Shown here: one piece after another, positions 51,773 through 51,856 of the stretch
Numbering within the stretch: the first letter of the stretch is position 1
Layout of the letters: each line of letters opens with the position of its first letter
Assembly (NCBI GenBank): GCA_016432325.1
Contig: CP066684.1
Location: 810,770-874,769, forward strand
DNA from: Candidatus Aenigmatarchaeota archaeon
GTDB lineage: Archaea > Aenigmatarchaeota > Aenigmatarchaeia > PWEA01 > JACQIF01
Reading direction: 5' to 3'
Length of the DNA: 64,000 nucleotides
Made by a program: the position numbers and the translations under genes
Notes under the pieces: generated by a model
The model's input: only the letters and a program-made list of their open reading frames with translations
Databases searched by the model: none
What the model was told of the DNA's origin: nothing

Positions 51773-51856
51773 GTCGTTTTTGCCCATGTACGAAAACACG
51801 CGTTTTCGACATGTCGGCAAGCTTCGCTTGCCGTACACGCTTTTCTTAAAAGCGTG
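51773..51856. repeat. Module B (51787-51838) nested inside module D
   Basis: GTCGTTTTTGCCCA[B]CGCTTTTCTTAAAAGCGTG compared with the reverse complement of 18919-18950. Confidence 0.8.

Follow-up and report, generated by a model that had tools for sequence, protein, structure and literature searches.

The subject of this study is a pair of short palindromic modules, B and D, that lie upstream of nac in a 64,000-nt stretch of the genome of a Candidatus Aenigmatarchaeota archaeon (G000; 875 kb in a single contig, 56% G+C, 90% complete); the whole stretch is referred to below as the window. The nac gene, which encodes the nascent polypeptide-associated complex protein, occupies positions 51432 to 51755 on the reverse strand and lies approximately 110 nt from its promoter owing to a cassette in which a complete copy of B sits inside D. 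A palindromic TATA-like box, TTTATAAA (51887–51894), is common to nac and to a small open reading frame (ORF) on the forward strand; to judge by spacing alone, it would serve as the promoter element of both. A near-copy of the nac start (GTG followed by AAAATCA; 51855–51864, reverse strand) lies 23 nt downstream of this box, and the leaderless mini-ORF of 34 codons that begins there runs through both D and B, stopping 4 nt before the nac ATG.

Read on the forward strand, the cassette opens with part of the D tail (the left half; 51773–51786, ending ..GCCCA), which matches the tail of uninterrupted D copies. It is followed by the complete module B, a 51-nt twin hairpin (51787–51837) that is the best match in the genome of the covariance model R2: its first hairpin (A; 51787–51811) consists of TGT, a bulged A, a 7-bp stem and ACA, and its second (B; 51812–51837) of TGT, an 8-bp stem, a bulged T and ACA. 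The D hairpin, with a perfect 9-bp stem and a 3-nt loop, spans 51836–51856; its first two bases (CA) come from the end of B, and the D-derived part proper of the right half is 51838–51856. An initial annotation had claimed that the reverse-strand sequence of 18919–18950 recurs in near-identical, split form at 51773–51856, and that a complete B does the splitting. Both forms are found at these positions, and removal of 51787–51837 in silico restores an uninterrupted D junction, exact to the base, which confirms the observation that a complete B is nested within D. Two further D+B composites elsewhere in the genome likewise give the uninterrupted D junction once B is removed.

Significance of the junction patterns was judged against 100 shuffles. 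The uninterrupted pattern occurs twice in the window (18931–18946 and 18990–19005, both on the reverse strand) and the interrupted pattern once (51778–51844); neither was seen in any shuffle. The 32-mer of 18919–18950 (reverse strand) is unique in the window at up to three mismatches, where none is expected. Compared to the element at the tRNA-Ala gene, the split D is identical at 13/14 positions in its left half and at 17/19 in its right half. Folded as DNA, B at the nac leader has a z-score of -8.6; the RNA fold at the nac-leader cassette has a z-score of -3.9.

The CA on either side of B had been read as a duplication of the target. This reading does not hold. Every B copy ends in ..CGTRCA irrespective of the bases that come next, and the RCA pairs with an internal TGY with perfect covariation; the terminal CA is an integral part of B. 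Among B copies genome-wide, the dinucleotide preceding B is CA solely at D sites. Since the CA belongs to every B and other B copies are not preceded by one, there is no target duplication. In the composites the D hairpin stays intact, the terminal CA of B replacing its first two bases. A search for direct repeats immediately flanking B found none; repeats matching at 10 or more of 12 positions occur near B at 4 of 27 loci, at a distance of 19–40 nt, and bracket larger cassettes, not B.

The genome-wide collection of D copies with and without B, which the initial annotation had suggested, gave three composites, all exact when set against four uninterrupted D copies and two variants. One precedes nac, in its 5' leader; another is in the tRNA-Thr(CGU) leader (genome 784463), and the third at the start of an ORF encoding a type-IV-pilin-like preprotein (genome 703845). 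The boundaries of B are consistent: in all three it occupies the identical position, flanked by ..GCCCA and CRC.., and its orientation to D does not vary. The further claim, that the modules target each other, is not supported: only three of the approximately 35 B loci lie in D and about 30 B contexts are unrelated to it. Each of the three B copies in composites has its nearest relatives in the other two (0.77–0.84 identity), and the stem types that they share are absent from other B copies. One nesting followed by spread of the composite is therefore likelier than repeated targeting. Nesting of a second kind is also present: at three loci (genome 441667–441759, 758967–759063 and 103685–103771) another hairpin pair, of the TTCGGCC.. 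and TTTTCGRAC.. types, lies inside the central linker of B with TGT on both sides. Directly 3' of the tRNA-Thr(CGU) gene, about 750 nt from its composite, is a tyrosine recombinase gene (genome 783238–783720, reverse strand; L087), an arrangement that is the usual layout of an element integrated at a tRNA gene.

Module D consists of a perfect 21-nt hairpin (9-bp stem; feet CACRC and GYGTG) and a tail of 10–12 nt that reads GGCAAAA(A)CG in sense orientation. The genome has eight D loci; hairpin and tail are adjacent in 7/7. Two uninterrupted copies lie on the reverse strand of the window at the tRNA-Ala gene (18904–19150, forward strand), where the first exon and D are tandemly duplicated: one (18919–18950) follows the duplicated upstream copy of exon 1, and the other (18979–19008), in which a G/C pair of the stem has become A/T on both arms, forms the body of the first intron. 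This intron, which lies in the D-arm, does yield a bulge-helix-bulge (BHB) motif. D is also the body of the canonical intron of tRNA-Ser(GGA), and a cassette of D alone follows the 3' end of a tRNA, bracketed by a 16-nt copy of that end. Both D and B are found in either orientation relative to genes.

Structure-aware searches for B were run over the whole genome, with a structural regular expression and then with the covariance model R2. The strict expression gave 17 matches, corresponding to 15 distinct loci, and none in shuffles; the covariance model gave approximately 35 loci. BLAST recovers few of these copies because the stems vary from copy to copy; the structural pattern and the covariance model recover many more. 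The unit measures 48–56 nt. Besides the nac-leader copy, the window holds, on the forward strand, a copy that separates a fibrillarin-like gene from its promoter (12495–12545), a copy in an apparent T-loop intron of a tRNA gene (40971–41022; 94% identical, with shared flanks, to a copy at genome 515999) and, by the covariance model, a variant whose second hairpin has CAT..ATG feet (19846–19890, genome 830615–830659).

The architecture of B is identical on both strands: TGY, a single bulged A, a CG-closed stem and RCA in the first hairpin; TGY, a CG-closed stem, a single bulged T and RCA in the second. In the twin-hairpin alignment 99.3% of cells are paired, and 11 of the 18 pairs have changed on both sides. 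The foot pair 3–26 is CG in eight copies, UA in seven and UG in one, and the pair 31–54 is UA in ten and CG in six; C-A is never seen at either of these Y-R pairs. The termini of B are 6-nt inverted repeats (feet TGYACG and CGTRCA) and pair with the internal palindromic linker RCATGY, so that both ends would lie side by side in the folded strand. Across the stems of 42 hairpins there are 303 Watson-Crick pairs, two mismatches and no G.T pair. This points to palindromes at the level of DNA and not to a selected RNA, which would tolerate G.U. Two pairs of near-identical copies (40971–41022 and genome 515999–516050; genome 246857 and 258396) are 92–94% identical and differ almost solely in their loops of 3–4 nt, which are changed at nearly every position; loops of B hairpins evolve far faster than stems.

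Other descriptions of B were considered. Modeled as a three-way junction with an outer helix TGTA/TACA, B has a third pair that is disrupted in 4 of 16 copies; it is the twin-hairpin pairing that covaries. The archaeal BHB motif has two 3-nt bulges and a 4-bp helix; a scan and manual inspection of both strands, in three possible registers, found no BHB whose cuts would remove B or D+B. Rfam 15 gave no match in 51700–51920 even at E ≤ 1, and at gathering score it finds two tRNAs only in the window. Circularly permuted copies of B, expected from a circle that integrates through either linker, were not found in the genome. At genome 467490–467640 and 749960–750110, B lies within larger cassettes bracketed by direct repeats of 10–21 nt that are copies of a gene end or of a Shine-Dalgarno-plus-start region.

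Orthologous sites were compared in G001, a congener of G000 whose assembly is 73% complete. In the leader of the fibrillarin-like gene, where G000 carries B, G001 is contiguous, with conserved flanks and a clean junction lacking B. In the pilin-like gene the whole 81-nt D+B of G000 (L002:146-226, reverse strand) lies in frame inside the leader, upstream of the KG/QS processing motif; in G001 (L055:997-1020) this motif is preceded by a leader of just 8 residues. The composite adds 27 codons in place of 2, lengthening the leader from 8 to 33 residues, and the extended leader peptide is expected to be cleaved off. As the G001 site lacks both D and B, the composite moved, or was lost, as one unit. 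The tRNA-Thr leaders of both species retain a copy of the tRNA 5' end on the promoter side, as well as a hairpin of D type; in G001 this hairpin is a D variant whose stem differs and which lacks B. The D-only cassette at the 3' end of a tRNA in G000 is absent from G001. Both species share the D hairpin in the canonical intron of tRNA-Ser(GGA) (L094:197-255, G001:C85, compared to L008:178-212); in G001 a twin hairpin of another kind, 31 nt long, is nested in its loop. In the reverse comparison, one of eight G001 B loci has B at the G000 orthologue, and five others map to G000 flanks without a match to the model. The G001 orthologue of 40971–41022 holds a diverged B at the same place. Together these data make whole-module turnover, along with nesting at hairpin feet, loops and linkers, a general feature of G000 and G001. 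The earlier proposal that the modules move as units stands insofar as B and D are separate families that are present or absent whole at orthologous sites.

Orthologues of nac occur in 36 of 41 related genomes. Those from the 40 relatives and from metagenome contigs are all at most 58% identical, with upstream regions that cannot be aligned, and the G001 assembly holds no nac. In G028, which belongs to another family of the same class, a TATA-like box ahead of nac (L013) is followed after about 25 nt by a near-copy of the gene's start; an AT-rich hairpin comes next, and the true start lies beyond it.

What can be stated most safely is that gain or loss of B and D involves whole units and exact junctions, and that the arrangement at nac is a true nested composite. 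Beyond this, we think it probable that B and D are DNA-level palindromic modules, that B entered D on one occasion, and that the composite then spread. The two would be short non-coding palindromes belonging to a larger mosaic of hairpin modules in tRNA introns, 5' leaders and gene ends. At the nac leader B lies at the foot of the D hairpin, without target duplication, and as one unit the composite would have reached no fewer than three loci, namely the leaders of nac and of tRNA-Thr(CGU) and the pilin-like prepeptide. Movement would take place on folded single-stranded DNA, by a hairpin-guided cut or copy and subsequent rejoining; perfect stems, and B ends splinted by the internal linker, suggest this. 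The elements could be selfish or neutral passengers, residing where extra sequence is harmless, with the enzyme presumably supplied by the host.

Several observations weigh against this reading. Neither a Y1/RAYT transposase (PF01797 search, no match at E ≤ 0.1, positive controls detected) nor TnpB, reverse transcriptase or Cas1 was found in the genome, DDE transposases not having been searched; the genome has only two tyrosine recombinase genes, one of them just 3' of tRNA-Thr. The one congener, 73% complete, does not allow gain to be distinguished from precise loss. It is the D cassettes, not B, that are flanked by 10–16-nt copies of the adjoining gene end, and simple hairpin transposition does not explain such copies. 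The B copies of the composites differ by 16–23%, so their spread is not recent, and long-term retention of the composites could mean function.

The main rival, which we consider distinctly less probable, dispenses with insertion: recombination, gene conversion or replication slippage would shuffle the modules among hairpin copies dispersed over the genome. Precise deletion of B from D+B would yield uninterrupted D, as the folded dumbbell brings together ends bracketed by CA..CA, and in the tRNA-Thr leader a composite from another locus would have converted the D already present. The tRNA-Thr leader does speak for such exchange: its flanks and the copy of the tRNA 5' end are shared between the species, yet both arms of the D stem are different throughout (CGAGC type as opposed to CACAC type), which looks like cassette replacement and not point mutation. 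The same tRNA positions also hold different intron-body modules in G000 and G001, and the pairing of B ends on an internal guide favors slippage. However, B has some 30 contexts unrelated to D, and tRNA introns of both species contain D copies free of B, implying that B joined D at some point; moreover, the empty pilin-like and fibrillarin sites offer no repeat to convert.

It is also conceivable, if unlikely, that D+B functions as a structured RNA leader whose three hairpins, within the nac 5' untranslated region, control translation through the mini-ORF and re-initiation, or else as a protein-binding or endonuclease-processed RNA module common to tRNA introns. The TATA box and the nac ATG flank the cassette, and the mini-ORF begins 23 nt past the former and ends 4 nt before the latter; the RNA fold (z = -3.9), the start duplication and hairpin likewise present at nac of G028, and the fact that D is the body of real tRNA introns are all in keeping with such a role. 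The modules nevertheless lie in either orientation to genes and, at the sites tested, vary in presence from one congener to the other, the 305 stem positions contain not a single G.U, B boundaries show no bulge-helix-bulge, and there is no Rfam match at E = 1. As for a chance resemblance of the D halves around B to the tRNA-Ala element, only the shortness of the left half (14 nt) speaks for it. The 13/14 and 17/19 matches, the lack of either pattern in 100 shuffles and the recurrence of the junction in two more composites exclude it for all practical purposes.

None of the nearest known systems matches the DNA-level modules in full. Repetitive extragenic palindromic (REP) units are often paired in opposite orientation and combined with other modules into mosaics, as in bacterial interspersed mosaic elements (BIMEs) and REP doublets forming hairpins (REPINs). 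The REP palindrome bears an unpaired GTAG or CGTC tag, and some REP super-families lack a dedicated transposase (PMC3733652). B and D resemble REPs and BIMEs in being short palindromes in tens of copies, arranged in mosaics and nestings at or outside gene edges. They differ in having no GTAG or CGTC tag, in an archaeal host with no RAYT/Y1 gene found in G000, and in B stems that vary between copies yet remain perfectly paired; they lie in tRNA introns, leaders and a prepeptide, whereas REPs are mainly downstream of genes. Rickettsia palindromic elements are small palindromic repeats that can lie in frame in coding genes and be translated, as the 81-nt D+B does in the pilin-like leader; B and D are unrelated to them in sequence, much shorter, modular and nested, and mostly non-coding. 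Miniature inverted-repeat transposable elements (MITEs) have terminal inverted repeats, a target-site duplication of fixed length and an autonomous parent with a transposase. Nested MITEs are similar in that hairpin-bearing non-autonomous units are inserted in other copies. B has 6-nt inverted termini but no flanking duplication, and at 48–56 nt is far below the usual MITE size; no parent insertion sequence was seen (Y1, TnpB, reverse transcriptase and Cas1 not found, DDE not searched).

Palindrome-associated elements derived from IS200/IS605 insert 3' of a conserved short target without target duplication, have subterminal hairpins and depend on TnpA or TnpB. Hairpins and the lack of target duplication are shared with B, but the flanks of B contain no conserved tetra- or pentanucleotide, and no TnpA or TnpB was found. 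The attC site of integrons is a folded single-strand hairpin with extrahelical bases, recombined by the IntI integrase beside a cassette array; each B hairpin has one bulged base, and the genome encodes two tyrosine recombinases. Intron transposition inferred in Thermoproteales (2010, as summarized in PMC4090602) involves similar introns in unrelated tRNA genes and at unrelated positions, and would take place at the DNA level by a mechanism given there as unknown. The presence of D in introns of tRNA-Ser(GGA) and tRNA-Ala, and of B in tRNA introns, is reminiscent of this; here, however, the repeated unit is a hairpin module smaller than the intron, which also occurs outside tRNA genes and is nested, and no BHB bounds B.

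A literature search found no description of hairpin repeats in DPANN or Aenigmarchaeota. We tentatively raise the possibility that B, D and their relatives are an undescribed group of DNA-level mobile palindromes of DPANN, lacking a transposase of their own, inserting at each other's single-stranded points (hairpin feet, loops and linkers) and supplying the bodies of multi-intron tRNA genes as well as cassettes at gene starts and gene ends. If true, this would offer a concrete, testable route for the arrival and growth of archaeal tRNA introns. How enzyme-spliced introns arrive in archaeal tRNA genes is an unsolved question (mechanism unknown, PMC4090602), and a 2026 preprint on Asgard tRNA genes gives no general route (doi 10.64898/2026.10.13.758758). 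Here, tRNA intron bodies are built from the same palindromic modules that are found in mRNA leaders and a prepeptide, and the modules differ unit by unit, with exact junctions, between two species of one genus. B within D is the clearest single case for discrete modules combining by precise events, and provides defined junctions for population data and defined substrates for biochemistry. Should the modules be neutral passengers, they would still be of value to annotation, accounting for why nac and a tRNA gene lie approximately 110 nt from their promoters. The present analysis contributes the fold of B and its DNA-level signature, defines the nested junction exactly, rejects the CA duplication and identifies empty orthologous sites.

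A multi-intron tRNA gene (genome 204219–204405, reverse strand, compared to L048:1-360, G001:C7) has exon pieces that are shared between the two species; its intron contains unrelated hairpin modules, with B in G001 and none in G000. In a scan of wider genome contigs the exact composite junction had no match, and a degenerate B pattern gave single chance matches only, in GC-rich bacteria. B was not found in 37 other relatives searched. Its range comprises G000 and G001, with a diverged form in G022 (L070, L073, L077) and G031 (L071), both from a different family within the class. The twin hairpins of this related family have the same feet and bulges, and CA..TG stem bases instead of CG..CG; both genomes are AT-richer.
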